Source of the DNA: Bacteroidota bacterium
GTDB lineage: Bacteria > Bacteroidota > Bacteroidia > Bacteroidales > VadinHA17
DNA: 64,000 bases
Direction of reading: 5' to 3'
NCBI GenBank assembly: GCA_037127735.1
Contig: JBAXXU010000004.1
Location: forward strand, 786-64,785
Positions 12,029 to 55,047 of this stretch are shown here, in pieces (within the stretch, counting starts at the first letter, position 1; each line of letters opens with the position of its first letter). The position numbers and the translations under genes are program-made. The notes under the pieces were generated by a model that was not told where the DNA came from, searched no databases, and was given only the letters and a program-made list of their open reading frames with translations.

Positions 12029-12063
12029 AATCTAAACCCGAAACACGAAACATCCCCCAATAA

Positions 12064-15502: not shown

Positions 15503-16114
15503 ATGAAGAGATTAACCTTACTAACAGCTCTGCTTTTTTTAGTCTTAGTATCAATGGCACAGGATTATACTAAGTTAACTGCAGCATTCAGCGATAGCTA
15601 TGCGAAAGAAAAATCAGAGAAGTATGGCGATGCTATCACAGCATTGAAAGCATACTACGACGTTAATTCCTATGAGATTAACCTGAGGCTTGGATGGTTA
15701 ACCTATCTCCAGGGACAGTTCTCTGAATCAACGGGTTATTATAATAAAGCCATTGAGTTGATGCCTTATGCTATAGAACCCCGTTTGGGTGTAGTTCTAC
15801 CGGCTTCTGCTCTTGGTAACTGGGATTTGGTTATAGTTCAGTATAATAAGATTCTCGCAATTGATCCCAACAACACACTTACCCTATATCGCATGGGACT
15901 TATTCTGTATGATAAGAAAGATTATAAGCTGGCCTATCAGCAATTTGAAAAGGTTGTCAACCTTTATCCCTTCGATTACCAAAGTGTCCTAATGCTTGCA
16001 TGGACAAACTACAGGCTGGGAAAAACACGTGAAGCAAAAATTCTTTTCAACAAAGCTTTGCTTTACTATCCCGAGGATGCCAGTGCAAAAGAGGGGCTTA
16101 GTCTGATAAAGTAA
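15503..16114 (+). CDS. Secreted tetratricopeptide-repeat protein
   Basis: It has a signal peptide. TPR-like repeats are present (YYNKAIELMPY, YNKILAIDPNN, FEKVVNLYPFD, FNKALLYYPED). It starts 2 nt after the previous stop. Confidence 0.7.
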   Translation: MKRLTLLTALLFLVLVSMAQDYTKLTAAFSDSYAKEKSEKYGDAITALKAYYDVNSYEINLRLGWLTYLQGQFSESTGYYNKAIELMPYAIEPRLGVVLPASALGNWDLVIVQYNKILAIDPNNTLTLYRMGLILYDKKDYKLAYQQFEKVVNLYPFDYQSVLMLAWTNYRLGKTREAKILFNKALLYYPEDASAKEGLSLIK

Positions 16115-16154
16115 AGACAAAAGACAAAAGACAAAAGTAAAAAGACAAAAGTAG
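16113..16154 (+). repeat. AAAGACA heptamer tandem array (6 copies, 2 degenerate)
   Basis: Read directly. The first copy overlaps the TAA stop at 16112-16114. Confidence 0.95.
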
Positions 16155-18116: not shown

Positions 18117-18328
<212 letters not shown>

Positions 18329-19865: not shown

Positions 19866-19883
19866 TTAATTATTTTTATGACT

Positions 19884-21119
19884 TTACTTTGAAGTATTCA
19901 GGTTCATCAGAAAAAGGACTCCCTGAATCATACACGGAAAAATACCATCCCCATGATCAAGACCGGGAAGAATTACCTTTTTGCATAAATCACCTGATGT
20001 GCCTGCCTCAACCATTGCTGAATACATACTTTCTGTTGAAATGGGATTCACATCTGTATCATCTTCTCCATGTAACAGCAAAAGAGGCTTGTAACTATGC
20101 CATGCATTAACACTATTATTTATGAGAGCATCCCTTACTGAAGCATATTTTGGAGAAGTTGCAAACCCTGAAAGAAAATCAGAAGTGATCAATCCGGGAA
20201 TAGAGGTTGTAAGCTTATTATTGATCTCATCTGAGGTCAGAGATCCTGTGAACAACGAACTAAGCTTTGAAGCATACGGCTCATTTAGAATATCAGTAAC
20301 CGGGTTTGTAAACTGATTATAAGCAGTATAAGCATTTACAATATAGCCGAGATAAACCGGCATCGGATAAGTTGTCATGTTTACCATACCTTGCAAGAGA
20401 AGATAAATATCATAGGGACCTGCTCCACAGGCGCTTCCTTTTAGATTAAAATCACTATTGTAGTCAAGTTCAAGCGCCTTATGTAAGGCAAGTGTTGCCC
20501 AGCCACCCTGCGAATAACCAAGAAGATAATACTCATTCTTTAATGTTATTCCCGGCAGTTCAGAAATAGCTAGTTCTTTAACAGCAAACAACATATCTAC
20601 CAGCGATTTCACCGTGGGTTCTTTTACAAGATAAGGGTGAGGAACCTGAACTGATTCCCCGAATCCGGGATAATCGGCAATAACAACAACATATCCCATA
20701 GAGGCAATAATCTCAACAAACTGGTAAGGGTAGTTTATTGGAAATTCACCAGGAGCATAGTCATTGAGTGTATTTGTTCCATTCTGGAAAGATAAAACCG
20801 GATAATTACCCGGCGTTATCGGAACACAAACCAAACCGGAGGCATTAATCTCCTGACCATTAATGGTGGTTTTATAAACCAACCTGTGAATATTGATATC
20901 GCTGACTACAAGAGCTTTAAGACTATTGACTTCAGGAAGGGACGCGGAAACATTATCAATCAGATTGCTAATATAGGATTTGGTAAATGGAAACAAAAAC
21001 TCTTTTGAAACATAGTAAGAATAGGTTGTAGAATCATCTTTCTTTGTGCAGGAAGTTACTAAAACGAAAAGGATTAAAAATATCGCCGAAAACTTCAATA
21101 TTAATCTGTTAGTCTTCAT
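19884..21119 (-). CDS. Alpha/beta-hydrolase lipoprotein (secretory-lipase-like)
   Basis: Lipobox (LVTSCTKK), nucleophile elbow GYSQGG, and a C-terminal HGEDDTDV...DH consistent with a Ser-Asp-His triad. Confidence 0.65.
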   Translation of the reverse strand: MKTNRLILKFSAIFLILFVLVTSCTKKDDSTTYSYYVSKEFLFPFTKSYISNLIDNVSASLPEVNSLKALVVSDINIHRLVYKTTINGQEINASGLVCVPITPGNYPVLSFQNGTNTLNDYAPGEFPINYPYQFVEIIASMGYVVVIADYPGFGESVQVPHPYLVKEPTVKSLVDMLFAVKELAISELPGITLKNEYYLLGYSQGGWATLALHKALELDYNSDFNLKGSACGAGPYDIYLLLQGMVNMTTYPMPVYLGYIVNAYTAYNQFTNPVTDILNEPYASKLSSLFTGSLTSDEINNKLTTSIPGLITSDFLSGFATSPKYASVRDALINNSVNAWHSYKPLLLLHGEDDTDVNPISTESMYSAMVEAGTSGDLCKKVILPGLDHGDGIFPCMIQGVLFLMNLNTSK

Positions 21120-21185: not shown

Positions 21186-21235
21186 ACTTTTTGTAACTAA
21201 TCCGTAAATGTCCTAATACCGAAGTTTTTATCTTT

Positions 21236-21277
21236 CGACTTCGGACTTCCTACTCGGACTTCCGACTTCCGACATTC
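21236..21277. repeat. Heptamer array CGACTTC GGACTTC CTACTCG GACTTCC GACTTCC GACATTC
   Basis: Read directly. It lies in a divergent promoter region, ending 6 nt before the candidate -7 box of the ABC-F gene. Confidence 0.85.
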
Positions 21278-29778: not shown

Positions 29779-29872
29779 CTTTGTGAGCCTTTGTGTAATC
29801 CTTTGTGCGACTTAGTGTTTAATATTTTTTTACCACGAAGGTACACAAAGTACATCACAAAGTAACACAAAG
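29779..29872. repeat. Palindromic motif array: 4x CTTTGTG-like then 4x CACAAAG-like
   Basis: CTTTGTG occurs at 29779, 29789 and 29801, and CTTAGTG at 29811. CACGAAG occurs at 29834, and CACAAAG at 29844, 29856 and 29866. The spacings 10/12/10 are mirrored. It lies between convergent genes. Confidence 0.9.
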
Positions 29873-30978: not shown

Positions 30979-31026
30979 ATGTGTAATTTATTTAAAAATA
31001 GAGTTTCATCCGGCCACTTAAACTTT

Positions 31027-31061
31027 TGTCTTTTATCTTTTGTCTTTTGTCTTTTGTCTTT
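31027..31061 (-). repeat. AAAGACA heptamer array (5 copies, minus-strand sense)
   Basis: The plus strand reads TGTCTTT TATCTTT TGTCTTT TGTCTTT TGTCTTT. It ends 2 nt from the stop codon (31064-31066) of the minus-strand gene. Confidence 0.95.
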
Positions 31062-38722: not shown

Positions 38723-38758
38723 AAAGTATGTGTTTGGCTGACGCCAAACACATACTTT
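38723..38758. other. Perfect 16-bp inverted repeat with 4-nt loop
   Basis: AAAGTATGTGTTTGGC-TGAC-GCCAAACACATACTTT, read directly. It lies about 50 nt upstream of the vsr start, at the left edge of the R-M locus. Confidence 0.9.
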
Positions 38759-38805
38759 CTTGCCAGCACGCTCCTCTTAAGATTATTATGGGTAATTTTG
38801 TTATT

Positions 38806-39276
38806 ATGGACAAATTGACCAAAGATCAGAGACGAAAGAATATGCAAGCAGTAAAGCAGAAAGATTCAAAAATAGAGAGTCTTTTGGCAAAACGACTATA
38901 TTCATTTGGAATCCGATATAGACGAAATGATAATTCTGTTTATGGAAAACCTGATATCTCATTTAAAAAACTTAAAATAGCCGTATTCTGTGACAGTGAA
39001 TTTTGGCACGGGAAAGATTGGGAAACTAAAAAGTACGAGATAAAATCAAATCAGGATTTTTGGTATAAAAAGATTGAATCAAATATTTTACGCGACAAAG
39101 AAGTAAATAGTCAACTTTCTGAGTCCGGATGGAAAATAATTAGATTTTGGGGTAAGGATATCGAAAAAAAATTAGAATTCTGTGTTTCAAGTATTCAAAA
39201 TGCCATTTTTGAACAAAAAGAAAAAATAAATGACTTACATAAGGACATTAAAAGACGGGAAATCTCAGGTAATTAA
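38806..39276 (+). CDS. vsr: Very-short-patch-repair endonuclease
   Basis: From ATG 38806: QRRKNMQAVKQKDSKIE, FGIRYRRND..YGKPDISF and KIAVFCDSEFWHGKDW are canonical Vsr blocks. Confidence 0.85.
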   Translation: MDKLTKDQRRKNMQAVKQKDSKIESLLAKRLYSFGIRYRRNDNSVYGKPDISFKKLKIAVFCDSEFWHGKDWETKKYEIKSNQDFWYKKIESNILRDKEVNSQLSESGWKIIRFWGKDIEKKLEFCVSSIQNAIFEQKEKINDLHKDIKRREISGN

Positions 39277-40069
39277 AGATGTAGCATTTTGCACACTTTT
39301 AAAAGAAAAATTGCCTGAACCTCAACAGCTTCTTGATAAATTAATTACGGACTTTGATAAAGAGATTAATAAACGAGACAGCACTGTTTCAAAAGACGCT
39401 TTAAATAATGTTCACGGTGATTGGTATGAATGGCTTTTAGCATTATCAGCATGGAATTATTTTGCTGAAAATAAAAAGGCTAATCTTGCCCTCTTGACTC
39501 CAAATATTGCTCAATTTGATGTAGCAAGTCTTTACAATGAAAAACTGTTTTCCTTAATCCAAGATCTTCGGCAAAAAGTTTCGGCAGCTTCCTCTGTTCA
39601 ACTTATTTCTTCAAATCCGGATTTTGTAATTATTGATCGTAATTTAGTTAATCGATTTATTCCAAGATTTGATAAAATAACAAAGATTAACCAAGAAGCA
39701 ATTAAAAAAATAGAAGATGCATATAAAACATTTGAGTTAAAATGCGGATTTGATGATATCTTTGGATATATTTCTGTGAAGACTTCTTTTAGGCCTGACA
39801 GGAGACTTCAAATTCCTCACGAAGGAAGTTTGATGAAAGCAATTTATACCCATCTTCAAACAAGAGAATGGATCATTAATCCTAAAGGAATAAAATATTT
39901 TGCCATAGCTACGAAAGTTGGTAACCCAGATAGGGCTGCACTAAAGACTGTTGCCACACATAGCATCACAACGGTTCATTCAATCCCTCAAGCAGCAGTT
40001 GATGAGGTATTTGAAGTTAACTCACTACAACAAGCTCAACTTGCTTTTCAACAGATATTGAGTGTTTGA
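39230..40069 (+). CDS. Type II restriction endonuclease, Cfr10I/Bse634I/NgoMIV family (CCGG-core recognition expected)
   Basis: GDWYEWL, SNPDF and SVKTSFRPDRRLQIPHEGS give a PD...SxK...E arrangement. The K-to-E spacing is 14 residues, as I recall for Cfr10I (S188/K190/E204). The gene is adjacent to a C5-MTase and vsr. Confidence 0.7.
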   Translation: MTYIRTLKDGKSQVIKDVAFCTLLKEKLPEPQQLLDKLITDFDKEINKRDSTVSKDALNNVHGDWYEWLLALSAWNYFAENKKANLALLTPNIAQFDVASLYNEKLFSLIQDLRQKVSAASSVQLISSNPDFVIIDRNLVNRFIPRFDKITKINQEAIKKIEDAYKTFELKCGFDDIFGYISVKTSFRPDRRLQIPHEGSLMKAIYTHLQTREWIINPKGIKYFAIATKVGNPDRAALKTVATHSITTVHSIPQAAVDEVFEVNSLQQAQLAFQQILSV

Positions 40070-41279
40070 TACTTAATTGTTTTTTGATACTTAGTCCGAT
40101 AGCTCGTGCTAACCCAGGAGGTACTGCATTTCCAATTTGTTTTCCTCCACTTGCAAGGGTTACTCGTCCTCTTCCATGATGTTTTAAAGTCCAACTTAAT
40201 GGGAAATCCTGTAAAATTGCCATCTCAATCGTACTTAACCCTCTATTTTCAAATGGATGAATGTACATACCTTTAGCGGGATTATATGCAGCGGTGCGAA
40301 TTGTAACAGAAGGTAAATCAGCAATTAGCCTACCGAATGTATCATTTCCTTGATGCTTACCACTTTTCCAACAATCAGGTCTTAATTCAGGAGGTAGTAC
40401 TTTGAAATTTTCACCCTGCTTTATCAATTTCATGCGGTTTACTACTTTTTCCGAAATATTCATAAGAGCGAAATCTTCTCTCTTTTCTGGATTCTTTGGT
40501 AGCCGATTAAAAGCGTCTTTCACAGTTACCCAACTTTTTGGAGTATATTTCGGTACCTTATTCAAACCTCTAGTGAATGTTTCCCAGCTCTTAGTATCTT
40601 TCATATGAGTTGGAAGTGGAAAGGCGGGATTTTTAGAATCTTTTATACCAATTAAGAAAAATCTTTCACGTCTTTGTGGAACACCATAATTTGCAGAATT
40701 TAATATCGAATAAGAAATTCCATAACCCGTCCCCTCAAAGTTTTTAATCATATAATCTAACACAAAAGCATGCTTATTCTGAGTAATTCCAGCAACATTT
40801 TCGAAGATAAACGCTTCAGGTTGAATACCTTTAACCATACGGACAAATTCCTGAAAAAGATCACCATTTTTTTTATCTTCAAGTCCTTCCTTTTTTCCCA
40901 TATTGCTAAATGGCTGACAAGGGGCACCACCAACAACAAGGGTTACTTGGCCTTTTTTTAATCCAACATAATTTAATAGTTCATCTACTTCAATATCTCT
41001 AATGTCACCCGGTTCTCTTGTGATTATTTTACCATATTCTGTTTTCACCGATTCTTCGAAAACATTCCAATCTGGTCGATTAAACTTTAAAGTTGCCCTG
41101 CAATTGATATCATTCTCAACACATGCAATTGTGTGAAATCCTGCTTGTTCTAAACCAATATCCAAACCACCAGCTCCGGAAAATAAGCTGATCACTGTAT
41201 AAAACTGACCATTTTTAATTTTTTCTGATTCAGTAATATCAACATACTGTATTTTATTCTTCTCATTAATATAATTCAT
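40017..41279 (-). CDS. DNA (cytosine-5)-methyltransferase
   Basis: Motifs I FSGAGGLDIG, IV GGAPCQPFS, VI FENV, VIII QRRERFF and X GNAVPP are present. I chose the start at ATG 41279 (MNYINEK). The 3-prime end overlaps the endonuclease 3-prime end by 53 nt. Confidence 0.9.
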   Translation of the reverse strand: MNYINEKNKIQYVDITESEKIKNGQFYTVISLFSGAGGLDIGLEQAGFHTIACVENDINCRATLKFNRPDWNVFEESVKTEYGKIITREPGDIRDIEVDELLNYVGLKKGQVTLVVGGAPCQPFSNMGKKEGLEDKKNGDLFQEFVRMVKGIQPEAFIFENVAGITQNKHAFVLDYMIKNFEGTGYGISYSILNSANYGVPQRRERFFLIGIKDSKNPAFPLPTHMKDTKSWETFTRGLNKVPKYTPKSWVTVKDAFNRLPKNPEKREDFALMNISEKVVNRMKLIKQGENFKVLPPELRPDCWKSGKHQGNDTFGRLIADLPSVTIRTAAYNPAKGMYIHPFENRGLSTIEMAILQDFPLSWTLKHHGRGRVTLASGGKQIGNAVPPGLARAIGLSIKKQLSIKHSISVEKQVELVVVS

Positions 41280-41283
41280 AACC

Positions 41284-41556
41284 TTACTTATTTCTATTAT
41301 ACAAACCTTTGGGTTCTTCAACCAAATCAGCTGAAATTTCTGGAACAAACGATTTACAGCCTATAGCTAGCAAACATTGTATCAAAAAAGCAGCACTAAA
41401 TGTTCCTCTACTTATTTTACTATCAATGCTAGCTTTTGTCTCTATAACATTAATTTCAGCAAGTAGTTCAACCAACTGATCATGACTAATGCCTCTCCGA
41501 ACTAATTCAGATCTCAGCAGTCGTTTAGCTTTATCGTTCCAATCAATTGAGTTCAT
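41284..41556 (-). CDS. Small helix-turn-helix-like protein, possible R-M controller
   Basis: 90 aa. LLRSELVRRGISHDQLVELL is HTH-like. It lies immediately upstream of and co-oriented with the methyltransferase. Confidence 0.45.
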   Translation of the reverse strand: MNSIDWNDKAKRLLRSELVRRGISHDQLVELLAEINVIETKASIDSKISRGTFSAAFLIQCLLAIGCKSFVPEISADLVEEPKGLYNRNK

Positions 41557-41578
41557 ATACCGGCGAATTTACCGGTAT
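41557..41578. promoter_or_regulatory. Inverted repeat ATACCGG-N8-CCGGTAT abutting the start codon of the HTH/methylase operon
   Basis: Read directly. It contains ACCGGC and ACCGGT, both RCCGGY-type sites. Confidence 0.5.
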
Positions 41579-42154
41579 ATTATCACATATGCAAATATTT
41601 TAACGCATTTTATAAACATTTTTCAACTTTATTTAACTTTATTTTTAAAAAATCTCTGTCAGGCACATTTGGCATTCGCTCAATGCCCTCGCATTAACCA
41701 AAAATGCCAAACGAGTCTTTAATTTTACACATCATGACAATAGTCTAAATCTATTAATAATCCATTGACCCCGGGACAATTCAGGATTTAAATGAATGCC
41801 TGCATACAACACGGACAATAAAGGTAAGTTGTTTGTCACACTTTTTGCTTTTGCTCCTGCACGCAAGACAGATTCGTAATTCCTTATACCGCGATCGTGC
41901 CAGTGCCCACCAATAACATTGTAACCGGGGATAAATTCGCGGCTCCGATCAAACTTGTACCGCGTCACTCGTATAACTCGCAAAACTTGTACCTGGTCGG
42001 CAAAAAGTGCGCCATACCCTCCTTGCACAGTGCCAGTTTCTCGGCTAAAGTACCAGGACCCAACCCGGTACTTGCATCGGGTAACACAACCTCCCTTTAT
42101 TGCCGGGCTGTTAATGTTAATTAATCAGCTCCCTGCACATTAGACAAATTTCTT

Positions 42155-43132
42155 TTGCAACGTAAAGGCAAAAGATGGGATGGGGTTCCATTACCAAATA
42201 TTTCTGTTGCAGAATTAAAGCAAGAGTCATTTGATTTTTTTCGCAAAAGAGCACTTAAAAGCCAACGAATTGAAGAAGATATATTGACAGATTCTAACGA
42301 ACTTCTTATTGAAAATCTTCAATTAAAAGAAAATGCGTTTCTAAAACGGGCAGCTATTTTACTGTTTCATCCTAAACCTGAAAAATTTATTACCGGGTCA
42401 TTCATTAAAATAGGTTTTTTTGAAACAGATGATGACCTGAAATTTCAGGACGAAATACACGGTAATCTATTTGAACAGATTGAAAAGGCAATGGATTTAC
42501 TTTTTACCAAATACATTAAAGCCGAAATAAGTTACGAGGGTATTAGTAGAGTCGAAAAATATGAATATCCGAAAGATGCGGTTCGTGAAGCTCTGTTAAA
42601 TGCTATTGCTCACAAAGACTATTCAGGAGGTGTGCCCATACAGATTAGTGTTTACAACGACAAAATCATTTTTTGGAACGAAGGTCAATTACCGGAGAAT
42701 TGGACAATTGAAAGTCTTTTGACCAAACATCCATCAAAACCCTATAAACCTGATATTGCCAACGCCCTTTTCAGAAGCGGTTACATTGAATCGTGGGGAC
42801 GTGGAACTTTAAAGATGATTAAAGAATGTATTGACGCTGGTTTACCTAAACCTTTGTACTACTACGACATGTCGGGCTTTTTTGTGGAGTTTAGAAAAGA
42901 CATATTCAGTGAGAAATATCTTAAATCTCTTGGATTAAATGATCGGCAGGAAAAAGCAATTATATTCATTAAAGAAAAAGGTAAAATTTCGAATAGTGAG
43001 TATCAGGATCTAAACAATGTATCTAAGGCCACAGCTACAAGAGATTTATCAGAACTTGTTGAGAAATATGAAATTTTAAGAAGAGCCGGTGACATTGGGG
43101 CTGGAACTAATTATGTTTTGATTGGCTCATAA
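42155..43132 (+). pseudogene. N-terminally truncated AlbA_2/HATPase_c_4-type putative DNA-binding ATPase (often mis-annotated RecG-like)
   Basis: The reading frame opens only at 42125, with no ATG; the track uses TTG. The sequence begins in the linker (GKRWDGVPL). The usual about 120-aa N-terminal AlbA_2 domain is absent. A C-terminal wHTH is present (NSEYQDLNNVSKATATRDLSELV). Confidence 0.5.
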
Positions 43133-43180
43133 TTGGCTCAATTGGCTCATAATGGGCTCATAATTGGCTCAATTGCATCA
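43121..43180 (+). repeat. TTGGCTCA tandem array, period 9/11, 5-6 copies
   Basis: ATTGGCTCATA ATTGGCTCA ATTGGCTCATA ATGGGCTCATA ATTGGCTCA ATTGCATCA, read directly. The first copy encodes the last codons and the TAA stop (43130-43132). Confidence 0.9.
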
Positions 43181-46285: not shown

Positions 46286-47254
46286 TCAAAACAGATCTTC
46301 AAGCACCATTGAATAAATATCTTCGAGAGGAATTCCAGCGGCTTCAGCCTGTTTCGGGACCAGACTTTCTTTTGTCATTCCCGGAACGGTGTTGATCTCA
46401 AGAAAGAATGGCTTTCCCTTGATCACAATAAAATCAACCCTTACAATGCCTTTACAGCCAAGAAGATCATACACGAGTGAGCTGAGTCTTTGGATCTCTT
46501 CTGTTACGCTTGCAGGCATATTGGCAGGGGTGACCTCATTCGATTTCCCTGGAGTATATTTTGCTTCGTAATCGAAAAACTCATTTTTACTTATAATCTC
46601 AGTTACAGGAAGTATAATTGCTTTCTTTTTCGTTTTCACAACGCCGCAAGCTACCTCTCTTCCATCCATAAAAACTTCAATCAGCGCTTCGTTGCTCTCC
46701 TTAAATGCTGAATCAATAGCCGGCAGTAACTCCTCTTCCGTTTTAACCTTTGTCACTCCAAAACTCGACCCGCTGTCATTTGGCTTAACAAAGCACGGTA
46801 GTCCTACCTGCTTAATAATGCTTTTATTATCTGTTTTTTCTCCTTTTCTTATCAGGATAGCATCAACCATTGGAATCTTATACTCCTTCAGAAAGAGTTT
46901 GCACGCCTGTTTATTAAATGTGAGGGCAGAGCAGAATGCTGAGCAACTTGTATAAGGAATACCCATCATATCAAAATAACCCTGCAGCAGGCCATTCTCC
47001 CCTGGTGTACCATGTATTGCAATGAATACTGCATTGAATTTTATCTTGTATTCATCGGTAAGAAGAGTGAAATCATTCTTGTCAATATTATGATAACGGC
47101 CATTCTGATCTTCCCAGTACCAGTTGGTTCCCCGGATCATTATTATATAAACTATATATCCGTATGATAGTATTTTACCAACTTCATTTGCACTTTTTAC
47201 CGAGATCTCAAATTCAGAGGAGTCACCTCCTGCTACTATTGCAATTGTTTTCAT
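46286..47254 (-). CDS. ddl: D-alanine--D-alanine ligase
   Basis: IAIVAGGDSSEFEISVKS, IHGTPGENGLLQG, FVKPNDSGSSFG and FLEINTVPGMT are present. Confidence 0.9.
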   Translation of the reverse strand: MKTIAIVAGGDSSEFEISVKSANEVGKILSYGYIVYIIMIRGTNWYWEDQNGRYHNIDKNDFTLLTDEYKIKFNAVFIAIHGTPGENGLLQGYFDMMGIPYTSCSAFCSALTFNKQACKLFLKEYKIPMVDAILIRKGEKTDNKSIIKQVGLPCFVKPNDSGSSFGVTKVKTEEELLPAIDSAFKESNEALIEVFMDGREVACGVVKTKKKAIILPVTEIISKNEFFDYEAKYTPGKSNEVTPANMPASVTEEIQRLSSLVYDLLGCKGIVRVDFIVIKGKPFFLEINTVPGMTKESLVPKQAEAAGIPLEDIYSMVLEDLF

Positions 47255-48133: not shown

Positions 48134-48583
48134 ATGAAAGCTTCATCGTTCTTTTCAAAGGAACAACAGGCACTGATTCTTGCATCTGTCAGAGAGGCCG
48201 AAATGGCAACTTCAGGTGAGATTCGGGTTCATATTGAAACCTCATTTACAGGTGATGTACTCGACAGAGCTGCCTGGATATTCAAAAAGCTTGGGATGAA
48301 CAAAACTGCCGACCGTAACGGAGTACTCTTCTATCTTGCAGTAACCGACAGAAAGTTCGCCATCATTGGAGATGCAGGTATCAATGCAAAAGTTCCTGCA
48401 GGTTTCTGGGATGAGATAAGCGCACTTCTTCAAAAAAATTTCAGGGAAGGGAAATTCACGGAAGGGCTTTCGGAAGGAATTGTGCTTGCCGGCAAACAGC
48501 TTAAGACTCATTTCCCTTATAGTAAGGATGATGTAAACGAACTGCCCGATGAGATTTCATTCGATAAAATTAAGGGAGAGTAA
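48134..48583 (+). CDS. TPM-domain protein (TLP18.3/Psb32/MOLO-1 phosphatase family)
   Basis: SGEIRVHIE, NGVLFYLAV.DRKFAIIGD and the LemA-TPM-TPM gene order are typical. Confidence 0.75.
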   Translation: MKASSFFSKEQQALILASVREAEMATSGEIRVHIETSFTGDVLDRAAWIFKKLGMNKTADRNGVLFYLAVTDRKFAIIGDAGINAKVPAGFWDEISALLQKNFREGKFTEGLSEGIVLAGKQLKTHFPYSKDDVNELPDEISFDKIKGE

Positions 48584-49404
48584 TGGCAATGAAAAGAAAA
48601 AGTTTGTATTTACTAACCCTGGCTGTTCTTTTTTGCACTATTTCAATCAGCGGAGTTTTTTCACAGAATATTCCTGACAGGCCGGTTCCTCAAAGGCTGG
48701 TAAATGATTTCGCGGGGTTACTTAATGCACAGGAAGCAGGTTTACTTGAAGGGAAGCTGGTGGCTTTCAACGACTCAACATCAACACAGATTGCTATCGT
48801 AATTGTCCCATCTCTTGACGGATATGATAAATCGGACTATGCACAGCGATTAGCAGAGAAATGGGGCGTTGGTCAGAAAGGTCTGAATAATGGAGTCATC
48901 GTTCTGGTTAAACCAAAAACTGCCGGTTCAAACGGAGAGGTCTTTATTGCCCAGGGTTATGGTCTCGAAGGAGCAATTCCTGATATTACATGCGGTGAGA
49001 TAGTTGATAAGGAGATACTGCCTGCCTTCAGGAACGGAGATTACTTTGGTGGGCTGAGTAATGCAACAAATACACTGATGTCGCTGGCAAGAGGTGAGTT
49101 TACGGCTGCACAATACGGACAATCGGCAAAGAAGAGTTCAGGGGGCGATGCACCTATCGGGCTTATTATTTTTATCGTTTTCATTATTGTAGCTATGATC
49201 TCCGGAAAATCGGGAGGATCGCGCAATAAAAACATCGGCAGTGGCGGGTTACCTTTCTGGTTATTATTGGGAATGATGGGCTCAGGAAGAGGATCTCATG
49301 GCGGAAGCTGGGGTGGATTTTCTGGTGGCGGTGGTGGAGGCGGCGGTTTCGGCGGCTTCGGAGGGGGCAGCTTTGGCGGTGGCGGTGCCGGCGGGAGCTG
49401 GTAG
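48583..49404 (+). CDS. TPM-domain protein (YgcG-like) with TM helix and Gly-rich tail
   Basis: It has a signal peptide. VNDFAGLL...TSTQIAIVIV...NNGVIVLV...GYGLEG are present, with a C-terminal GGGGGGFGGFGGG. A TAATG overlap links it to the preceding gene. Confidence 0.8.
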   Translation: MAMKRKSLYLLTLAVLFCTISISGVFSQNIPDRPVPQRLVNDFAGLLNAQEAGLLEGKLVAFNDSTSTQIAIVIVPSLDGYDKSDYAQRLAEKWGVGQKGLNNGVIVLVKPKTAGSNGEVFIAQGYGLEGAIPDITCGEIVDKEILPAFRNGDYFGGLSNATNTLMSLARGEFTAAQYGQSAKKSSGGDAPIGLIIFIVFIIVAMISGKSGGSRNKNIGSGGLPFWLLLGMMGSGRGSHGGSWGGFSGGGGGGGGFGGFGGGSFGGGGAGGSW

Positions 49405-49416
49405 CTTAAGGCATGG

Positions 49417-49444
49417 GGCGCAGGGCGCAGGGCGCAGGGCGCAG
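49417..49444 (+). repeat. GGCGCAG heptamer x4
   Basis: Read directly. It starts 13 nt after the TAG stop at 49402-49404. Confidence 0.95.
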
Positions 49445-49582
49445 GGTTCATCTTATAAACAAGTTAAAGGTAAGGTAAGTTAACGAAATTTATGTCTGGA
49501 CAGCCTCTGCGCAGGCAAGAGTTTTGCAGCCCATACTTGCAACCATCCCTTCACTGCCAAACACATGTTTTTTTGCCTACCC

Positions 49583-49760
49583 GGACTCCACCATATAGAG
49601 AATCTTATCATAATCCAAAATTTCTACCCCTTTACCAGGACTTTTTCCACCTTGACAAATTTATCAAAACACGATAATTCCTGCCAATCTACTGGGACTT
49701 TACCATATTGAAAACTTTATCATTCAATGACAACACCTGCCCTTAATCGGAACTTTAATA
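49583..49760 (+). repeat. About 3.5 degenerate tandem copies of a ~55-bp unit (GGACTTT..CCAYMTWTTGA.AA..TTATCA...CCTGCC)
   Basis: GGACT occurs at 49583, 49638 and 49695, and GGAACT at 49749. I aligned the units by eye. Confidence 0.65.
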
Positions 49761-49764
49761 TCAG

Positions 49765-50032
49765 GTGAAAGCACCGGTCACTGATTTGAACAACTTGCCA
49801 AGGCTGGTTCAATTGAATTATTTATTTTACGATAAAAACGGCAACAAAATTTCTGAGGATGACTACATTATAAAACCAGAAGGTTTTACAATTCCGGCGG
49901 AGGAATCAAGAATTCACGGGATTTCAAACGAGAAAACAATCCATGAGGGTAAAGCTCTTCGGACTGTCTTAACAAACGTTCTATATTTTGATTGATCAGG
50001 CAGAATATCTTGTTGTACATAATATAATATGA
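49765..50032 (+). pseudogene. Remnant of a DnaQ-like 3-prime-5-prime exonuclease gene
   Basis: LPRLVQLNYLFYDKNGN...IIKPEGFTIPAEESRIHGISNE matches the region after the Exo I motif. There is no DxE N-terminus (a stop lies 9 nt upstream). The frame breaks at 49995 and continues shifted as DQAEYLVVHNII before stopping. Confidence 0.6.
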
Positions 50033-50103
50033 TTCATTCGATGAATTAAATTCAAATTCGTCAAAATATATCCGTGAATATTTCACGGATAAGAATAAAA
50101 CAA

Positions 50104-50111
50104 TATCTTTG
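50104..50111 (+). promoter_or_regulatory. Candidate -7 box (TATCTTTG) for the ATPase/RloB pair
   Basis: Matches TAnnTTTG 25 nt upstream of ATG 50137. Confidence 0.4.
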
Positions 50112-50136
50112 ATCTACAATATTAAATCGAAAAATC

Positions 50137-51438
50137 ATGTTACTACGATTAAAAATCAGGAACTTCCTGTCATTTTTTGAAGAAACAGTATTCGATATGT
50201 TTCCGAATCCTAAACGCACTTCTTTTCCTAATCACATCTATGGAGAAATGAGCGTACCACTGTTAAAGCAAGCTGCCATTTATGGGGCTAATGGTTCGGG
50301 AAAATCTAATTTTATTAAAGCAATTGGGTTTATTAAAATGTTTGTAACACACGAAGATTTCCTGAAAAAGATAGATTTAGATGAATACATCTTCCAGTTG
50401 ACAACTGCAAAACAATCGAAGGTAAATTTTGAAGTAGAGTTTTTTATCAAGGGAAAGTACTTTGTTTACAAGATAGAAATTGATAAAAAGCATATTCAAG
50501 AGTCGCTTTATCAATCTGGATTAGGAAAAACACCCGACAAGTTGCTGTTTAAGCGCAATGGAGACGAAATCACATCAGGTTATTTAGAAAATGAGAGTTC
50601 TGCTAAGCAGTTGTTGACAATGAATCCTCTGTCATCTCTTCTCCCTTTAAACCAAAAGTTTCCTGTGCTTACTAGTGAAGATGTCAAGCTGGCTTTTGAG
50701 TGGTTTGAAAATAAGCTGGAAATAGTTACGATAAACAGTACTGTCCCTGCATTAATAGAATTGATGTCGAAACAGGCCGCCTTATTAAATTTAACGAATG
50801 AGATTTTTGAAAATATTGGGGTGGGGATCAATGCTGTAAAGATTGCTGATACACCTTTTGATCAATGGGTTACAGATAATAAAAACGCTAAGGATTTACA
50901 GCAAATAATGGAGAATGACCCATTGAAACAAAATATAGGGATATTAGGAATCGAAAATAACAGGACTATTTTTTCTGTTTCATTAAAAAAAGGAGGTAAA
51001 ACAGTACAGGAATTTCTGTTTGAACAAATAGGACAGACTGGATTTAAAAAAGAAATGAAAATCACTGCTCAATCAGATGGTACCGTTCGATTATTGACAT
51101 TAATTCCTGCCATATATGAAGCTATAAATAAACAAAAAGTCGTTTTTATTGATGAAATAGATAACAGTATCCATCCTAATTTGATGTTCTCGTTACTGCA
51201 GTTTTATGGAGCTAAACCATCTAAAGGTCAATTAATATTCACTACCCATACTACTAAATTGATAAATCAGCAGGAGTTACTTCGACCTGACGAGATATGG
51301 TTAAGCGAAAAGGAAAATGGTAATTCACGTATGTATTCTATTAATGAATTTAAGATACATAATACTATAAACCTTGAAAATGGGTATTTAGATGGACGTT
51401 ATGGTGCTGTACCTCAATTAAGTGTTTTAAATTCTTAA
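50137..51438 (+). CDS. AAA_21/AAA_15-type ABC-like ATPase (AbiLi-like)
   Basis: The N-terminus LKIRNFLSF, Walker A YGANGSGKSNF, Walker B VVFIDEIDNSIHP and TTHT are typical of the defence-associated ATPases paired with RloB/Toprim proteins. Confidence 0.75.
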   Translation: MLLRLKIRNFLSFFEETVFDMFPNPKRTSFPNHIYGEMSVPLLKQAAIYGANGSGKSNFIKAIGFIKMFVTHEDFLKKIDLDEYIFQLTTAKQSKVNFEVEFFIKGKYFVYKIEIDKKHIQESLYQSGLGKTPDKLLFKRNGDEITSGYLENESSAKQLLTMNPLSSLLPLNQKFPVLTSEDVKLAFEWFENKLEIVTINSTVPALIELMSKQAALLNLTNEIFENIGVGINAVKIADTPFDQWVTDNKNAKDLQQIMENDPLKQNIGILGIENNRTIFSVSLKKGGKTVQEFLFEQIGQTGFKKEMKITAQSDGTVRLLTLIPAIYEAINKQKVVFIDEIDNSIHPNLMFSLLQFYGAKPSKGQLIFTTHTTKLINQQELLRPDEIWLSEKENGNSRMYSINEFKIHNTINLENGYLDGRYGAVPQLSVLNS

Positions 51439-52247
51439 TGGCAGAAGTTAAGCCTACATATAGTAAAAATAGTCCTGAAAGGGAGCTTCTGCCACTACAG
51501 AAAAAGAAAACTGTTTCAGTCGAAGCCCAGCAAGTATCTTTAGTTAATATTCAGTTACCCGATTATCAAAAACCGGATATTGCAGAATTACCAAAAGCGT
51601 TTTTCATAATCATATCCGGGGGGGAAGTGCGTGAAAAAAACTATTTCAGATTCATATCAATTCAAGACAAATTTAAACGCATTAAGTTAGAATTTATAGC
51701 TGATCCATTAAAACTATCGCCGGATGGAATGTATGAGGTGGCTGAATATAAGAAAGCACATTATGAAACAAGTCGGAATGAAGATGCTGAACCCGACAAA
51801 ATGTATTTATTATCGGATGTAGATGATTTTATAAATGAACTTCTTCGAATTAAACCAAAATGTGAAAATGTAGGTTTTCATCTGATTATAAGTAATTCTT
51901 GTTTTGAAGTTTGGTTGTATTATGCTTATCGTGATACGATTCCATCTTTCCCATTACCAACAGATCCACTTAAGATTAGCAGCAAATTTAAAGGTTGGTT
52001 ACCAAGTGTAATTTCTGGAGGAATAAAACCCCAAAAAGCAATTTTACGTATATATTCTAATATTGAAAATGCAAAAAAAAATTACAGAGAAGATGAGAAC
52101 GGAATTCCTTTGTTGTTTTCAACTAACATGTATTTATTAGCCGAGAATTTATTGCCATTGATTGAACCAGAGCTTACAGAAATGATAGAGGAAACAAAAA
52201 GAATTGAAGCTGAGTTTCGTATTAAAAAGAAAGTAACTAATCAGTAA
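51438..52247 (+). CDS. RloB-like (Toprim-related) protein (AbiLii-like)
   Basis: FFIIISGGEVREKNYF, YLLSDVDDF and HLIISNSCFEVWLYYAY correspond to the three conserved RloB blocks as I recall them. A 1-nt TAATG overlap links it to the ATPase gene. Confidence 0.65.
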   Translation: MAEVKPTYSKNSPERELLPLQKKKTVSVEAQQVSLVNIQLPDYQKPDIAELPKAFFIIISGGEVREKNYFRFISIQDKFKRIKLEFIADPLKLSPDGMYEVAEYKKAHYETSRNEDAEPDKMYLLSDVDDFINELLRIKPKCENVGFHLIISNSCFEVWLYYAYRDTIPSFPLPTDPLKISSKFKGWLPSVISGGIKPQKAILRIYSNIENAKKNYREDENGIPLLFSTNMYLLAENLLPLIEPELTEMIEETKRIEAEFRIKKKVTNQ

Positions 52248-52491
52248 ATACAATAAGTATGTTTTAAGAGCTTAAAGTATTAAATACTTAAAGTTTAATC
52301 TATTAGATATTTACTCGAAGTCAATATTTAACTGATTAATTTTCTTATAATTAAAACCTTTATGATCTGTTATTTTGATTTTAAAATTCTCAGATTATCA
52401 AACATATCGTGTTTTTTACATATGTTAATAAACTTTGTCTATTTAAAAATATAATGTAAATTTATATCAGATGAACTAAAATTTAAAAAAG

Positions 52492-52869
52492 ATGAAAAAG
52501 ACAACTTTATTAATCGTATCGGTTTTGTTTATTTTATCTTGTTCTACTGATAATTCAAAAGAAGCATTATTAAAAAAAATAAAAAAAGCATTTCCTGCAG
52601 CTGCTGTTAATATGGAAACAACTGAAAAACAATTTAGAGTTGCAGATGAATTTGAAACTTATCCTATGCTATTTTTAAGTAGCGATATGGAAACAAGTTC
52701 AAAAGTAGAAAAATTAATAAATGAACATTTAGGATTTTCCACATCTACAAAATTTAATAATCAAGTATGGACAACGCCTGATTATGGGGTTGTTAAATTT
52801 ATAAACGGAAATCAAGATTTAGTTTTATTAATCTGTTCAAAAATGAGAGCTGAATTATATTTACATTAA
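52492..52869 (+). CDS. Small lipoprotein, unknown function
   Basis: Lipobox (VLFILSCSTD). The DNA is very AT-rich. I recognise no motif. Confidence 0.45.
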   Translation: MKKTTLLIVSVLFILSCSTDNSKEALLKKIKKAFPAAAVNMETTEKQFRVADEFETYPMLFLSSDMETSSKVEKLINEHLGFSTSTKFNNQVWTTPDYGVVKFINGNQDLVLLICSKMRAELYLH

Positions 52870-52910
52870 TCTAATCCTATTAAAATTTAAACAATTCTAA
52901 AATCAGCATC

Positions 52911-53138
52911 ATGGAAAGAAAAGATGAAATTAAAATAGCACTTTATACGGATTTTAAAAAGGGTGATGAACTTAAAACATTTGAAATAAAAGAATGCGTT
53001 TCAAAACATTATCCCGAAATTCCTAAAAATAGTATTTTACCATCTGATTTTTGTTGTAATTCTAAGACTAAGGATCCGTTTTCTGGAAAGTATCACATAT
53101 TTAAAATATTAGGCTATGGTTCTTATGAATTATTATAA
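52911..53138 (+). CDS. Hypothetical 75-aa protein
   Basis: An ORF only. The ILPSDFCCNSKTKDP motif is not assignable from memory. Confidence 0.3.
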   Translation: MERKDEIKIALYTDFKKGDELKTFEIKECVSKHYPEIPKNSILPSDFCCNSKTKDPFSGKYHIFKILGYGSYELL

Positions 53139-53301
53139 ATATCTAAACTTCAAAAAATAGCAAATGTAATTTTCAAAATTTTATTGTGTAAAACATTTTA
53201 TATTGGATTTTAGCCTAATATTTACTTTCCAATCTTATATCTTGATGATTATTAATAATATATAACTTTAATATGGCATAGCTGGGCCCACAATGAAAAT
53301 C

Positions 53302-53338
53302 AGACACTTACATTTCTAAATTGTGAGTGTCTTTTTTT
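53302..53338 (+). terminator. Rho-independent terminator-like hairpin with no obvious upstream gene
   Basis: AGACACTTA-(loop)-TGAGTGTCT followed by TTTTTTT. It lies 165 nt after the 52911-53138 ORF. Confidence 0.5.
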
Positions 53339-53413
53339 ATGCGCCAGGCTTAAGCCAGGTTTTGGAGAAAAGGAGAGAGTTTTGACCAAAAGATTACTCT
53401 ATCATAAGAGCAG

Positions 53414-53698
53414 GTGAAAGGAACCAAGAAACAATTGGCAGATTTTTTTGAGGTCAATGAGCGAACAATTGAAAACTATATCGAGAAAAATGAAGCAGAA
53501 CTAGCAAAAAACGGTTACGAGGTTGTTGTTGGCAAACGACTGACAGACTTTAAGTTAGTCCTTGAACGTCAGTCTGATCCTGAAATGGATTTCACCATCA
53601 AAACTGTCCGGTTGGGAATCTTCAATTTCAGGGCTTTGCTAAACCTTGGAATGTTGCTTTCCGACATCATTAAGGTCCGTGAACTTAGAAGATTTTGA
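53414..53698 (+). pseudogene. Fragment of an HTH/DNA-binding protein gene
   Basis: GTG start immediately after an in-frame stop. TKKQLADFFEVNERTIENYIEKN is HTH-like. The ORF ends abruptly and I do not recognise a complete domain architecture. Confidence 0.35.
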
Positions 53699-53978
53699 CA
53701 GGTTTCTGGGAGAGAAAAGTATGTCACTTGAAGATCGACTTGATGAATTCAAAGAGATTTTTATGAAGCATTAAAACTTGAGATATTGACCATTATAAGC
53801 CAGGACTTATCTTTAAATGAGTGAGAATTTTCTACAATTATTTACTCTACAGTTTTAATTTTAGACAAATTCAGTCTTCAGATTCTTTGGGTTATAAACC
53901 CAGCCCGTCCCTGCCTCACAACTTGACAGAGTGCAAGGTGCCAGTACTCATTTATAACGAGACGGATTTTAAATTTGC

Positions 53979-54012
53979 CCTGCCTCTGAGCCTGGGCCCT
54001 GAGCCCTGCGCC
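53979..54012 (-). repeat. GGCNCAG heptamer array (minus-strand sense: GGCGCAG GGCTCAG GGCCCAG GCTCAG AGGCAGG)
   Basis: Read directly. It starts 3 nt after the minus-strand rluD stop codon (54016-54018). Confidence 0.9.
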
Positions 54013-54015
54013 AAT

Positions 54016-55047
54016 TCATTCATGATCCCTACCGGAAGTATATTTCCTCCATTTATCTATTACCTGCGCCATATCATCAGGCATTTCTGAGTCGAATGAG
54101 AGCCTTTTTCCGGTTACCGGATGATCGAATGACAGCGATTTTGCATGCAGCGCCTGTCGTGGCAGTATCTTAAAACAATTTTTAATAAACTGTTGGTACT
54201 TGGTAAATGTGGTTCCTTTAAGTATCTGATCGCCACCGTATTCCTCATCGTTAAAAAGAGGGTGTTTAATATAACTGAAATGTACCCTGATCTGATGAGT
54301 CCTTCCTGTTTCAAGTTTACATTCAACAAGTGAAATATATCCGAGGTCCTCAATTACCTTATAATGTGTTATTGCTGATTTCCCTTCACTGCCATCTTTA
54401 AAGACCTGCATTATCTTCCTGTCTTTTATACTCCTGCCGACATTCCCGGTAATTGTGCCTTCCATAGGATCTGGTGTTCCCCATACAAGTGCATTATATC
54501 TTCTCTCTGTTGTACGATCATAAAATTGTTTCGAGAGTCTGTTAAGGGCGAATTCATTCTTCGCGATAACGAGAATCCCTGAAGTGTTTTTATCCAGTCT
54601 GTGAACAAGTCCCGGCCTGCTTTCACCCGTATTGAAAAGAGGAAGATCCTTAAAGTGCCACATCAGCGCGCTAACCAGTGTGCCGGTATAATTGCCATAG
54701 GCAGGATGGACAACCATTCCGGGCTCTTTGTTAACTACCAGGACGTCAGCATCTTCGTAAACAATATTTAGGGGAATGTTTTCCGGAACAAGTTCAATTT
54801 CTCTTGGAGGAGTCGGCAAAACGACCTGAACTATATCACCGGGTTTGACTTTATAGTTTGGTTTAACAGGGTTATTGTTAACGAGAATATTACCGGCATT
54901 TGCAGCATTTTGTATCCGTGTCCTGGAGGTGCTCTCGAGTCTGTCAGACAGGAATTTATCTATTCTCAGAAGCGATTGTCCGGGATCGGCTTTAAAACTG
55001 TGATGTTCAAAAAGTTCTTGCCGGTCAACTAATTCTTCTTCTGCCAT
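54016..55047 (-). CDS. rluD: RluA-family 23S rRNA pseudouridine synthase (RluD-like)
   Basis: It has an S4 domain (RIDKFLSDRL). HRLDKNTSGILVIAK, GRTHQIRVH and LHA are present. Confidence 0.9.
   Translation of the reverse strand: MAEEELVDRQELFEHHSFKADPGQSLLRIDKFLSDRLESTSRTRIQNAANAGNILVNNNPVKPNYKVKPGDIVQVVLPTPPREIELVPENIPLNIVYEDADVLVVNKEPGMVVHPAYGNYTGTLVSALMWHFKDLPLFNTGESRPGLVHRLDKNTSGILVIAKNEFALNRLSKQFYDRTTERRYNALVWGTPDPMEGTITGNVGRSIKDRKIMQVFKDGSEGKSAITHYKVIEDLGYISLVECKLETGRTHQIRVHFSYIKHPLFNDEEYGGDQILKGTTFTKYQQFIKNCFKILPRQALHAKSLSFDHPVTGKRLSFDSEMPDDMAQVIDKWRKYTSGRDHE

Follow-up and report, generated by a model that had tools for sequence, protein, structure and literature searches.

The window analysed here is a 64,000-nucleotide stretch of the genome of an uncultured Bacteroidales bacterium (GenBank assembly GCA_037127735.1, contig JBAXXU010000004.1, positions 786 to 64,785). 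It contains an AT-rich island of about 4.5 kb between the convergent genes TPM2 and rluD, and the island is bordered by two inverted arrays of GGCNCAG heptamers, each of which abuts the 3' end of one of the genes. The arrangement raises the question of how the island came to lie between the arrays, and whether the arrays belong to it. According to the original prediction, a defence or accessory island had integrated into the loop of a bidirectional terminator-like palindrome. The comparison with relatives and the homologies of the island indicate that the content of the spacer is probably a horizontally acquired accessory islet, which was assembled stepwise between convergent core genes and is flanked by native arrays. 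The genes and arrays that border the island are the following:

48583 to 49404, plus strand: TPM2, a TPM-domain protein with a glycine-rich tail (Pfam TPM_phosphatase, 1.5e-37), syntenic in about 75 of 80 relatives.
49397 to 49446, plus strand: TPM-side heptamer array, degenerate units and then four perfect GCGCAGG units.
53977 to 54012, minus strand: rluD-side heptamer array, GGCGCAG GGCTCAG GGCCCAG GCTCAG AGGCAG GGC.
54016 to 55047, minus strand: rluD, encoding a pseudouridine synthase that contains S4 and PseudoU_synth_2 domains (Pfam, 1.6e-33 and 7.1e-11).

The left core flank of the island is TPM2, with which the LemA-TPM1-TPM2 operon ends; the TPM2 stop codon TAG is at 49402-49404. The right core flank is rluD, the stop codon of which is at 54016-54018. 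The site was compared with 80 loci from species-representative genomes in which RluD is 80-93% identical to that of the window; individual loci and contigs are referred to below by L numbers. In about 75 of the 80 species, genes of the type IX secretion system (T9SS) and RluD converge on TPM2-TPM1-LemA, which is followed by Ddl. The TPM2-rluD spacer of the window measures 4611 nt from stop to stop. In the 74 species in which the spacer was measured, its median length is 87.5 nt, and it is 260 nt or shorter in 70 of them. Genes or proteins of the island are present at the TPM2/rluD site in none of the 80 related species. The spacers of relatives often consist of heptamer arrays, and only the arrays match when the DNA of the island is compared with these spacers.

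The island is composed of the following segments:

49447 to 49508: about 62 nt for which no homolog was found, possibly the loop of a former hairpin.
49509 to 49598, plus strand: 90-nt block homologous to a plasmid (blastn, 80% identity over 66 nt, E 1.4e-10).
49566 to 49764: a degenerate 56-nt unit in about 3.5 copies, core GGACTTT.CCA.ATTGA.AA..TTATCA (20-nt core, 75% identity, 56-nt spacing).
49765 to 50043, plus strand: DnaQ/DEDDh-type 3'-5' exonuclease pseudogene (NCBIfam PRK07942 2e-6, PHROG 192 4e-4, PADLOC DEDDh 2e-3).
50044 to 52232, plus strand: mobile AbiL cassette of 2.19 kb, delimited by DNA end points that it shares with copies in other contexts.
50137 to 51438, plus strand: AbiLi, an ABC/AAA_21-type ATPase of 433 residues (PADLOC AbiLi 3.2e-74, Pfam AAA_21 1.4e-33).
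51438 to 52247, plus strand: AbiLii, an RloB-family (TOPRIM-related) protein of 269 residues (PADLOC AbiLii 8.2e-17, Pfam RloB 8.8e-18).
52440 to 52870, plus strand: orf125 module, homologous to L101 only over the gene itself and the roughly 50 nt that precede it.
52911 to 53138, plus strand: small open reading frame (ORF) of 75 residues, DUF7225/DUF7669-like, with a GC content at third codon positions (GC3) of 0.15 (Pfam DUF7225 2.3e-6, DUF7669 8.7e-5).
53302 to 53338, plus strand: terminator-like hairpin (AGACACTTACA … TGTGAGTGTCT) followed by T7, identified by folding, with the stem at 53302-53332.
53414 to 53698, plus strand: truncated gene with a helix-turn-helix-like (HTH) region that resembles PDC-M59A (PADLOC, 2.5e-21).

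The island is a mosaic of gene-sized modules. Its modules have separate histories, which contradicts the single integration event that had been envisaged. The DNA of the AbiL cassette, which extends from its own upstream region to just short of the AbiLii stop codon, is 93-94.5% identical in nine other contigs, including L086-L088, L091, and L092-L095, and 80% identical in L090. In all ten contexts the homology is bounded at 50043/4 and 52231/2, and the flanking sequences are unrelated. Terminal repeats or target duplications are absent from the cassette ends in the contexts compared, and the junctions at the other sites of the cassette are free of arrays. The sharp ends repeated in ten contexts provide a data point on the exchange of modules.

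The relatives of AbiLi encoded on long contigs are 88-97% identical. The contigs of the 97% copies (L087, L088, L091, and a 7-kb Logan contig) are plasmid-like and carry Rep_3, ParA, iterons, a resolvase, and the insertion sequence (IS) IS21. The 95% copy adjoins hydrogenase-maturation (hyp) genes in L086, and the 88% copy is positioned inside a polysaccharide-utilisation region (PUL) in L090. AbiLii is 91% identical over 264 residues to the plasmid copy, with the differences confined to the last codons. The block at 49509-49598 matches Rep_3 plasmid-like contigs (L087, L092, L093, L094) at a distance of about 100-170 nt before their AbiL cassette. Over the segment 49509-52232, window and plasmid are co-linear apart from the exonuclease pseudogene, which the window has in addition. 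Because the cassette and its upstream 90 nt are co-linear with a plasmid-like element, recombination with a plasmid is the most likely route: the two segments would have been gained from, or lost to, a Rep_3/ParA plasmid by recombination rather than by an integrase of their own. It would be one more AbiL-type cassette that moves between plasmid and chromosome as a module reaching from promoter to stop codon.

AbiLi and AbiLii are both full length, and the PADLOC and Pfam profiles bear out the AAA-ATPase/RloB pair that had been recognised in the letters. AbiLi has the same length as most of its homologs, and its translation retains complete Walker A (G50ANGSGKS57) and Walker B (VVFIDE) motifs. 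The two genes have the same orientation, and the stop codon of AbiLi shares one base with the start codon of AbiLii (TAATG, 51436-51440). The upstream region of the cassette contains a perfect palindrome, ATCCGTGAA-TAT-TTCACGGAT, at 50069-50091, and the sequence TATCTTTG at 50104-50111, which we take to be the promoter because it matches the Bacteroidetes -7 consensus TAnnTTTG. By homology, the pair is presumed to be an intact two-gene defence system of the AbiL type, with AbiLi as the presumed sensor and AbiLii as the presumed nuclease effector. If the pair works as PARIS and OLD-family systems do, AbiLi may sense infection and then release or activate the nuclease AbiLii, so that the infection is aborted.

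AbiL has been grouped with the defence systems that combine an ABC-ATPase with a TOPRIM protein, such as OLD, Gabija, and PARIS (PMC11464382). The genes of the window resemble this group in being adjacent, overlapping, and co-oriented, with the ATPase first and the RloB-family gene second, and the AbiL type of the window occurs, like many of these systems, both on a plasmid and in chromosomes. The differences are that the host is not Lactococcus but a Bacteroidales bacterium that has not been cultured, and that the system is known here from its genes, with a putative mechanism taken entirely from the analogy with PARIS and OLD.

The remaining modules are small or decayed. In the exonuclease pseudogene, the PRK07942 match covers positions 25-82 of 232, and the ORF itself spans 49765-49995. 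The Exo I motif has decayed, and three-frame translation follows the gene through two frameshifts (…RIHGISNE… / …LVVHNII / YDSFDEL…) to about 50043, where it is cut off at the junction with the AbiL cassette. Three libraries (NCBIfam, PHROG, and PADLOC) thus agree with the exonuclease remnant reported before. The repeats upstream of it, originally described as 55-bp repeats, do have a 20-nt core at 75% identity and 56-nt spacing, but they are a weak feature: Tandem Repeats Finder (TRF) detects no tandem repeat in the region. A true tandem array was rejected, as the units are too degenerate for TRF; the feature is backed by its resemblance to the plasmid, which holds one related stretch at the same relative position.

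Both of the small ORFs noted earlier are present (52492-52869 and 52911-53138). The first, orf125, encodes a 125-residue lipoprotein-like protein with 26% GC, a GC3 of 0.13, and weak matches to signal peptides and lipoproteins; it has no match in Pfam or PADLOC. Its relative in L101, which is 74% identical in amino acids and 79% in nucleotides, lies in an unrelated context, and a metagenome scan with orf125 returned a single relative. The orphan terminator, consisting of the hairpin 53302-53332 and T7, was confirmed by folding, and the element 53302-53338 could form the end of an orf125-DUF7225 transcript. The gene with the HTH-like region had been described as a fragment, and its match to PDC-M59A (2.5e-21) is limited to positions 42-126 of 338, so the gene is truncated. 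It has a host-like GC3 of 0.41, and no match was found in Pfam, NCBIfam, or PHROG. The frameshifted exonuclease gene and the truncated PDC-M59A-like gene are probably leftovers of earlier cargo, and the very AT-rich segment with small genes was probably mobile on its own.

Two observations on plasmid-like and other contigs touch the small-gene segment. Repeats of 24 nt, AGGTGGTCAATTTGCTCCGGCG, adjoin the IS21 genes on a plasmid-like contig (L087, 5305-5389), and the similar motif GATGGTCAATTTGCTCC lies directly upstream of the orf125 homolog in L101 (about 1530-1580). This similarity hints at IS21-type ends that travel along with small cargo genes.

The composition of the island differs from that of its surroundings. 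The GC content is 31.8% in the island (49445-53985), 38.5% in the window, and 39-41% in the flanks, and the value for the island is below that of every one of 238 sliding 4.5-kb windows scanned. The island is indeed AT-rich, as had been claimed, and is the lowest-GC 4.5 kb of the window. However, the contrast is smaller than was implied, because the comparator of 48% came from one GC-rich gene. The composition is also uneven: the GC content falls to 23.4% in 52233-53290, is 32.6% over the AbiL cassette, and reaches 36-39% toward the two outer ends. The GC3 of the island is 0.13-0.30, compared with about 0.4 for the host.

As stated in the original prediction, the island contains accessory or decayed genes, which is confirmed by the profile matches and by the pseudogene and truncated genes. 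Apart from the AbiL genes, no ORF of the island exceeds 125 residues. Searches of the ORF translations, Pfam, PADLOC, and NCBIfam and a tRNA scan found no integrase, transposase, or tRNA in the island, in agreement with the earlier failure to see an integrase or transposase; the only tRNA of the window is at 18241-18328. Known RNA families from Rfam have no match in or near the island, and the island DNA has no match in curated plasmid and phage collections.

The two arrays that flank the island lie where they had been read from the letters, at 49417-49444 on the plus strand and from 54012 downward on the minus strand. The left array contains GGCGCAG x4 and begins at the 13th base past the TPM2 stop codon; TRF reports it at 49416-49446 with 4.4 copies and 100% matches. 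Upstream of the perfect units, the degenerate units GCTGGTA, GCTTAAG, and GCATGGG continue the register across the TPM2 stop codon. On its sense strand, the array matches the G3N4 G-quadruplex motif. The right array has clear units from 54012 to 53986, decays as AGGCAG GGC to 53977, and is separated by 3 nt from the rluD stop codon. The pattern GGCNCAGGGCNCAG, with one mismatch at most, has five matches in the window, all of them within the two arrays, whereas 0.10 are expected and none of 100 shuffles reaches five. The left and right arms are 91% complementary over 22 nt.

Similar arrays occupy the same position in relatives. A GCNYAGN array is present on the TPM side of the spacer in 11 of the 74 species, where it begins +6/+7 past the stop codon in nine of the 11, and on the rluD side in four of the 74. 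The degenerate units GCTTAAG and GCATGGG of the window share the register of these TPM-side arrays. L020, L056, and L058 have GCNYAGN arrays on both sides by the strict pattern, and the three also show facing GCNCAG arrays separated by a short loop, as do L015, L018, and L080 by a looser pattern. The spacer of L058 reads GCTCAGA GCTCAGT GCTTAGA GCGCAGG, a 15-nt loop, and CTCTGCGC CCTGAGC CCTGAGC.

When the arrays of the window are joined in silico, they fold with -61.3 kcal/mol (z -5.4). The corresponding values for natural sites are -36.4 kcal/mol (z -5.3) in L058 and -48.4 kcal/mol in L076, and for the CTTTGTG/CACAAAG structure elsewhere in the window -31.3 kcal/mol. Folding was scored on 53 spacers of 40-260 nt, and 19 of them have z < -3. 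With the island present, the local fold at each gene end is no better than that of shuffled sequences (z -0.99 and -0.45), and a still-working local hairpin at each gene end was rejected for this reason. Neither arm is followed by a T-run, and a terminator scan gives nothing at the arrays. The reconstructed junction and the natural empty sites resemble an intrinsic bidirectional terminator in having a stable G+C-rich hairpin between convergent genes, but differ from it in that no U-tract follows the arms of the window, and none was seen flanking the reconstructed hairpin. Where convergent genes carry the same unit, their arrays would pair into a long hairpin, and the islet of the window sits at the position of its loop.

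The left boundary of the foreign DNA does not coincide with the array, although insertion exactly between the arrays had been proposed. A stray inverted unit, CTCTGCGC, is located at 49505-49512; the right arm of L058 opens with the same 8-mer. The left junction seems to be beside the stray unit, about 64 nt inside the left array. The hexamer CTGCGC occurs five times on the plus strand of the window, and 0.009 occurrences are expected per 120 nt. The plasmid homology, which is preceded by the stray CTCTGCGC, opens exactly at GCGCAGG (49509-49515; GCGCAAG in the plasmid). These positions suggest that the old loop corresponds to 49447-49508, and that the foreign DNA was joined to the right arm, on its inner side, through GCGC microhomology. 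The most likely point of entry of the islet would be the inner edge of the rluD-proximal arm. Short direct repeats at the island ends, for which a search had been suggested, do not exceed chance: the best end-to-end repeat is TTATAAAC (8 nt), which is reached in 48 of 300 shuffles.

A serious alternative, if a distinctly less probable one, is that there never was a contiguous hairpin at this site, and that TPM2 and rluD each acquired an independent 3'-end array of what is by chance the same unit family. Independent arrays on both convergent genes would cause any insert in the spacer to be flanked automatically by inverted arrays. Arrays without a partner do follow stop codons at window positions 11952, 16113, and 31023, and a TPM-side array is present alone at the same site in L027, L066, L069, and L071. 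L049 and L056 carry non-complementary units on the two sides of the spacer. One unit may also be used at several genes: AAAGACA occurs at three sites of the window, and in L083 one unit follows both TPM2 and Ddl. Furthermore, the arrays are more frequent on the TPM side (11 of 74 species) than on the rluD side (four of 74). Against independent arrays stand the complementarity of the two arms in the window and the observation that two-sided arrays are usually complementary, with the 19 strongly folding spacers described above. The rare CTCTGCGC about 63 nt inside the left array is what is expected of the inner end of a right arm, and arrays of this unit family are paired in L058, L020, and L056. 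The arrays are not specific to the site and need not be the halves of the one palindrome of the original prediction: arrays of one unit come after many stop codons in the sense direction, often unpaired.

Several observations weigh against a stepwise-assembled islet that split a former hairpin. Only one unit, noticed post hoc, makes up the CTCTGCGC remnant, and the local fold there is not significant (z -0.45). A few unit families are re-used at many genes of a genome, so that a common unit is no proof of a former hairpin, and since arrays are a general feature of gene ends, inverted arrays around an insert between convergent genes are partly automatic. Facing arrays with the same unit are present in only three to six of the 74 species. 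The alignment of empty sites produced facing arrays in L058, L020, and L056, as had been anticipated, but the closest relatives have quite different spacers: L006 contains AAGACAA arrays and an IS, L008 has a spacer of 3 nt, and L009 has a CGCAAAG hairpin. Because the spacers of the closest relatives are unrelated and turn over fast, the ancestral state cannot be reconstructed with certainty. Look-ups of the exact RluD, TPM2, LemA, and TPM1 proteins gave island-bearing contigs or short contigs that end in arrays, and no empty site within the species, so that the insertion is deduced from comparison between species. Finally, the homology between plasmid and chromosome gives no direction of transfer, and the defence function is assigned from homology.

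It is improbable that the array pair or its hairpin is an active insertion target and the spacer a dedicated hotspot for the capture of cargo. Repetitive extragenic palindromic (REP) sequences are targets for some IS families, and attC sites for integrons. Three other species have inserts at the same spacer, namely an IS with a DUF772/DDE transposase in L006, a heparinase II/III gene in L046, and 636 nt of non-coding DNA in L070, and the plasmid homology in the window begins at the heptamer-like GCGCAGG/GCGCAAG. However, inserts of at least 600 nt were found in three of 74 relatives at this spacer and in five of 69 at the adjacent, array-free LemA/Ddl divergent spacer, and on the strength of this control an array-based hotspot was rejected. 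Inserts of at least 600 nt are absent from the tandem T9SS-RluD spacer. In addition, the inserts are of unrelated kinds, the other contexts of the AbiL cassette are free of arrays, and neither a recombinase nor a target duplication nor a conserved junction motif was found. The TPM2-rluD spacer is a permissive spacer, not a target to which arrays direct insertion, and defence cargo would accumulate and decay in it without an integrase.

Defence systems in sites flanked by core genes and without identifiable mobilisation have been described in the core defence hotspots (cDHS) of P. aeruginosa (PMC10250203) and in the hotspots of E. coli (PMC10121019). The site in the window is similar to them in having a core-flanked defence system, variable content, decayed remnants, and no integrase. 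It differs from them in that the islet is very small and holds one system, in the low occupancy (four of about 78 species), and in that most of the other inserts at the TPM2/rluD site are not defence genes; the window alone has a recognised defence system there. As the site is no hotter than the neighbouring spacer, hotspot is too strong a word for it.

Ancestral presence of the island at the site, followed by loss in all the other sampled species, is very unlikely. Every sampled contig of the species does contain the island, and its outer segments have a host-like GC content. Nevertheless, the island is absent from all 80 species, which range from 80 to 93% in RluD identity, its GC content is low, and its GC3 departs from that of the host. 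The cassette DNA is also 93-94.5% identical to copies on plasmid-like contigs and in unrelated chromosomal contexts, which is not expected of vertical descent when the core proteins are only 80-93% identical.

It is less probable still that the island arose in assembly, as an artefactual chimera joined at the arrays: Logan short-read contigs do break at or near the arrays (L003, L005), but three independent assemblies (NCBI GCA_964470955.1, ENA ERZ4201038, and ERZ4223250) agree on the same 4611-nt spacer with point differences only, and L003 continues from rluD through the right array into the right edge of the island, reading 84 nt past the rluD stop codon. L003 and L005, which are from the same species, stop inside the left array or soon after the right one. 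Because short-read contigs break at or near arrays, short-read metagenome-assembled genomes (MAGs) may under-report both the arrays and the DNA between them.

The stepwise-assembled islet is in itself an ordinary defence islet in a permissive spacer, and the array system is the more interesting part of the locus. Arrays were surveyed in 1.53 Mb of sequence, only 64 kb of which comes from the source genome. Seven is the commonest tandem period, with 70 arrays of at least three copies. Of the 66 non-coding heptamer arrays, 47 lie within 30 nt downstream of a stop codon, and 43 are within 15 nt of the 3' end of a gene, compared with none within 15 nt of a 5' end. When two recurrently sampled sites are excluded, eight of 20 arrays lie no more than 15 nt from a 3' end, where 11.4% would be expected (p ~1e-3), and again none is near a 5' end. 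Read in the sense orientation, 40 arrays are purine-rich versus seven, and G exceeds C in 40 versus five. The dinucleotide AG is present in 36 of 46 sense units and in 18 of 46 antisense units. Most unit families have an NAG-N4 periodicity, and AG occurs in 19 of 27 distinct units, compared with 13.9 expected. Motifs of the form G3N1-7 x4 are found in eight sense arrays and in no antisense array, in the register GGGCNCA. The same internal order of variants is present at different loci in different species. The arrays are native 3'-end elements of the clade, anchored at stop codons and oriented in the sense direction, and they are not parts of the island.

The arrays may tentatively be regarded as a clade-wide class of gene-end elements with a role at the level of RNA or transcription, for which we found no earlier description, rather than as debris of replication slippage. 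Such elements could offer a multimeric RNA-binding protein a platform, act as a terminator based on G-quadruplexes or hairpins, or stabilise 3' ends. This would accommodate the +7 anchoring of arrays at orthologous genes, the strand specificity, the rapid turnover between sister species, the copying between loci in compound units, and the long paired hairpins at convergent genes. If it is true, the island displays the outcome of splitting a paired element. The array-bearing clade of uncultured Bacteroidales is common in peat, fen, and lake sediments. The ending of transcription and the protection of mRNA 3' ends are poorly understood in Bacteroidota, and the arrays offer a concrete gene-end feature, predictable from sequence, for questions about transcription end in this phylum.

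A description of 3'-end heptamer arrays in Bacteroidota was not found in the literature, which is not proof of its absence, and the arrays share properties with two groups of known repeats. They resemble the REP sequences and bacterial interspersed mosaic elements (BIMEs) of Proteobacteria, as they are short dispersed repeats past gene ends, often between convergent genes, that can form hairpins and may recur as compound copies (L072). They differ from them in that each arm is a tandem array of 7-nt units, the unit varies with locus and species, unpaired arrays are common, and the arrays are strand-biased and anchored within a few bases of the stop codon.

The second group consists of heptamer simple-sequence repeats, and the short tandemly repeated repetitive (STRR) sequences of cyanobacteria are one bacterial type of these. 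TAACTGA heptamer repeats, built of one unit, are positioned mainly upstream of start codons (PMC4679880), and bacterial heptamer simple-sequence repeats are covered, as far as the account in PMC4679880 conveys it, by the survey of heptanucleotide long simple sequence repeats (LSSRs) by Mrazek et al. 2007. The TAACTGA repeats, LSSRs, and STRRs have in common with the arrays described here tandem 7-nt units, a mostly intergenic location, an orientation bias, a patchy taxonomic spread, and a very variable copy number. In contrast to the TAACTGA repeats (PMC4679880), the arrays follow stop codons (none of the 66 is near a 5' end), belong to many unit families, and frequently form inverted pairs.

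Further arrays illustrate the variety of the system. Those with a G-quadruplex motif include the TPM-side array of the window (49416-49446) and arrays in L034, L046, L066, L069, L070, L071, and L077. The AAAGACA arrays of the window, at 11952-12030 (plus strand), 16113-16151 (plus strand), and 31023-31061 (minus strand), have 11.3, 5.6, and 5.6 copies, respectively. They begin 2-4 nt past the stop codon or overlap it, are oriented in the sense of the upstream gene, and have no inverted partner nearby. All three end in a similar AAAGTAAAAAGAYAAAAGT tail, and a 31-nt string recurs at the TPM2 end of L006. The structure at 29779-29872, which is located 17 nt past a stop codon, consists of CTTTGTG x3 and CACAAAG x3 with 3-5-nt spacers (period 10-12), and its hairpin of -31.3 kcal/mol has a z of -5.1. 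The same spaced-heptamer design, with CACAGAG, CACAAAG, and CGCAAAG units, fills the TPM2/rluD spacer in L009, L012, L013, L034, L047, L055, L059, L076, and L077. The sole exception in the window to the stop-codon rule is a CTTCCGA-type array at 21232-21273 (six copies, 75% matches), which is positioned in a divergent (5') spacer.

Arrays of the GGCNCAG family are located 0-6 nt past the Ddl stop codon in L006, L028, L046, L066, L070, L077, and L083. The window has no array at the 3' end of Ddl (46286-47254, minus strand), as this gene ends only 4 nt from a converging ORF of 126 residues. In the spacer of L056 (11029-11420), GGCTCAG is repeated about 33-34 times on the TPM side, and a non-complementary CTCTCCG-type unit about 11 times on the rluD side; array length is highly unstable there. 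L072 contains a compound element of about 100 nt, [GCGGCAC]x5-[TGAAAGT]x4-CTCAGGGCGTGCAGGG…, in three copies at 11027-11130, 11418-11490, and 19806-19905, two of which are direct and one inverted. The outer copies abut the stop codons of rluD and of an ORF on the minus strand, 8.7 kb apart. The TPM operon is absent from the L072-L074 lineage, which suggests a rearrangement associated with arrays.

In L086, at 3773-3828, a paired-array hairpin (GGCTTCA x4.3 / CCTGAAG x2.6) is located between convergent genes, 2 nt past the HycI stop codon, so the array system reaches beyond the 80 sampled relatives. Matches to GGCNCAG x4 in viral contigs come mostly from genomes with 50-69% GC; most of them are within ORFs, and the stop-codon rule does not hold for them. 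Giant-virus MAGs account for many of the viral-contig matches to AAAGACA.

Upstream of the island, the window contains a second accessory cluster at about 38728-43132. According to gene calls transferred from L096 with a shift of 37510, it encodes Vsr, a Bse634I-like restriction enzyme, a DNA cytosine methylase, DUF6471, and a HATPase_c_4 protein. Its last gene runs at the end into an 11-nt tandem repeat, ATTGGCTCATA x4.8, located at 43121-43171.

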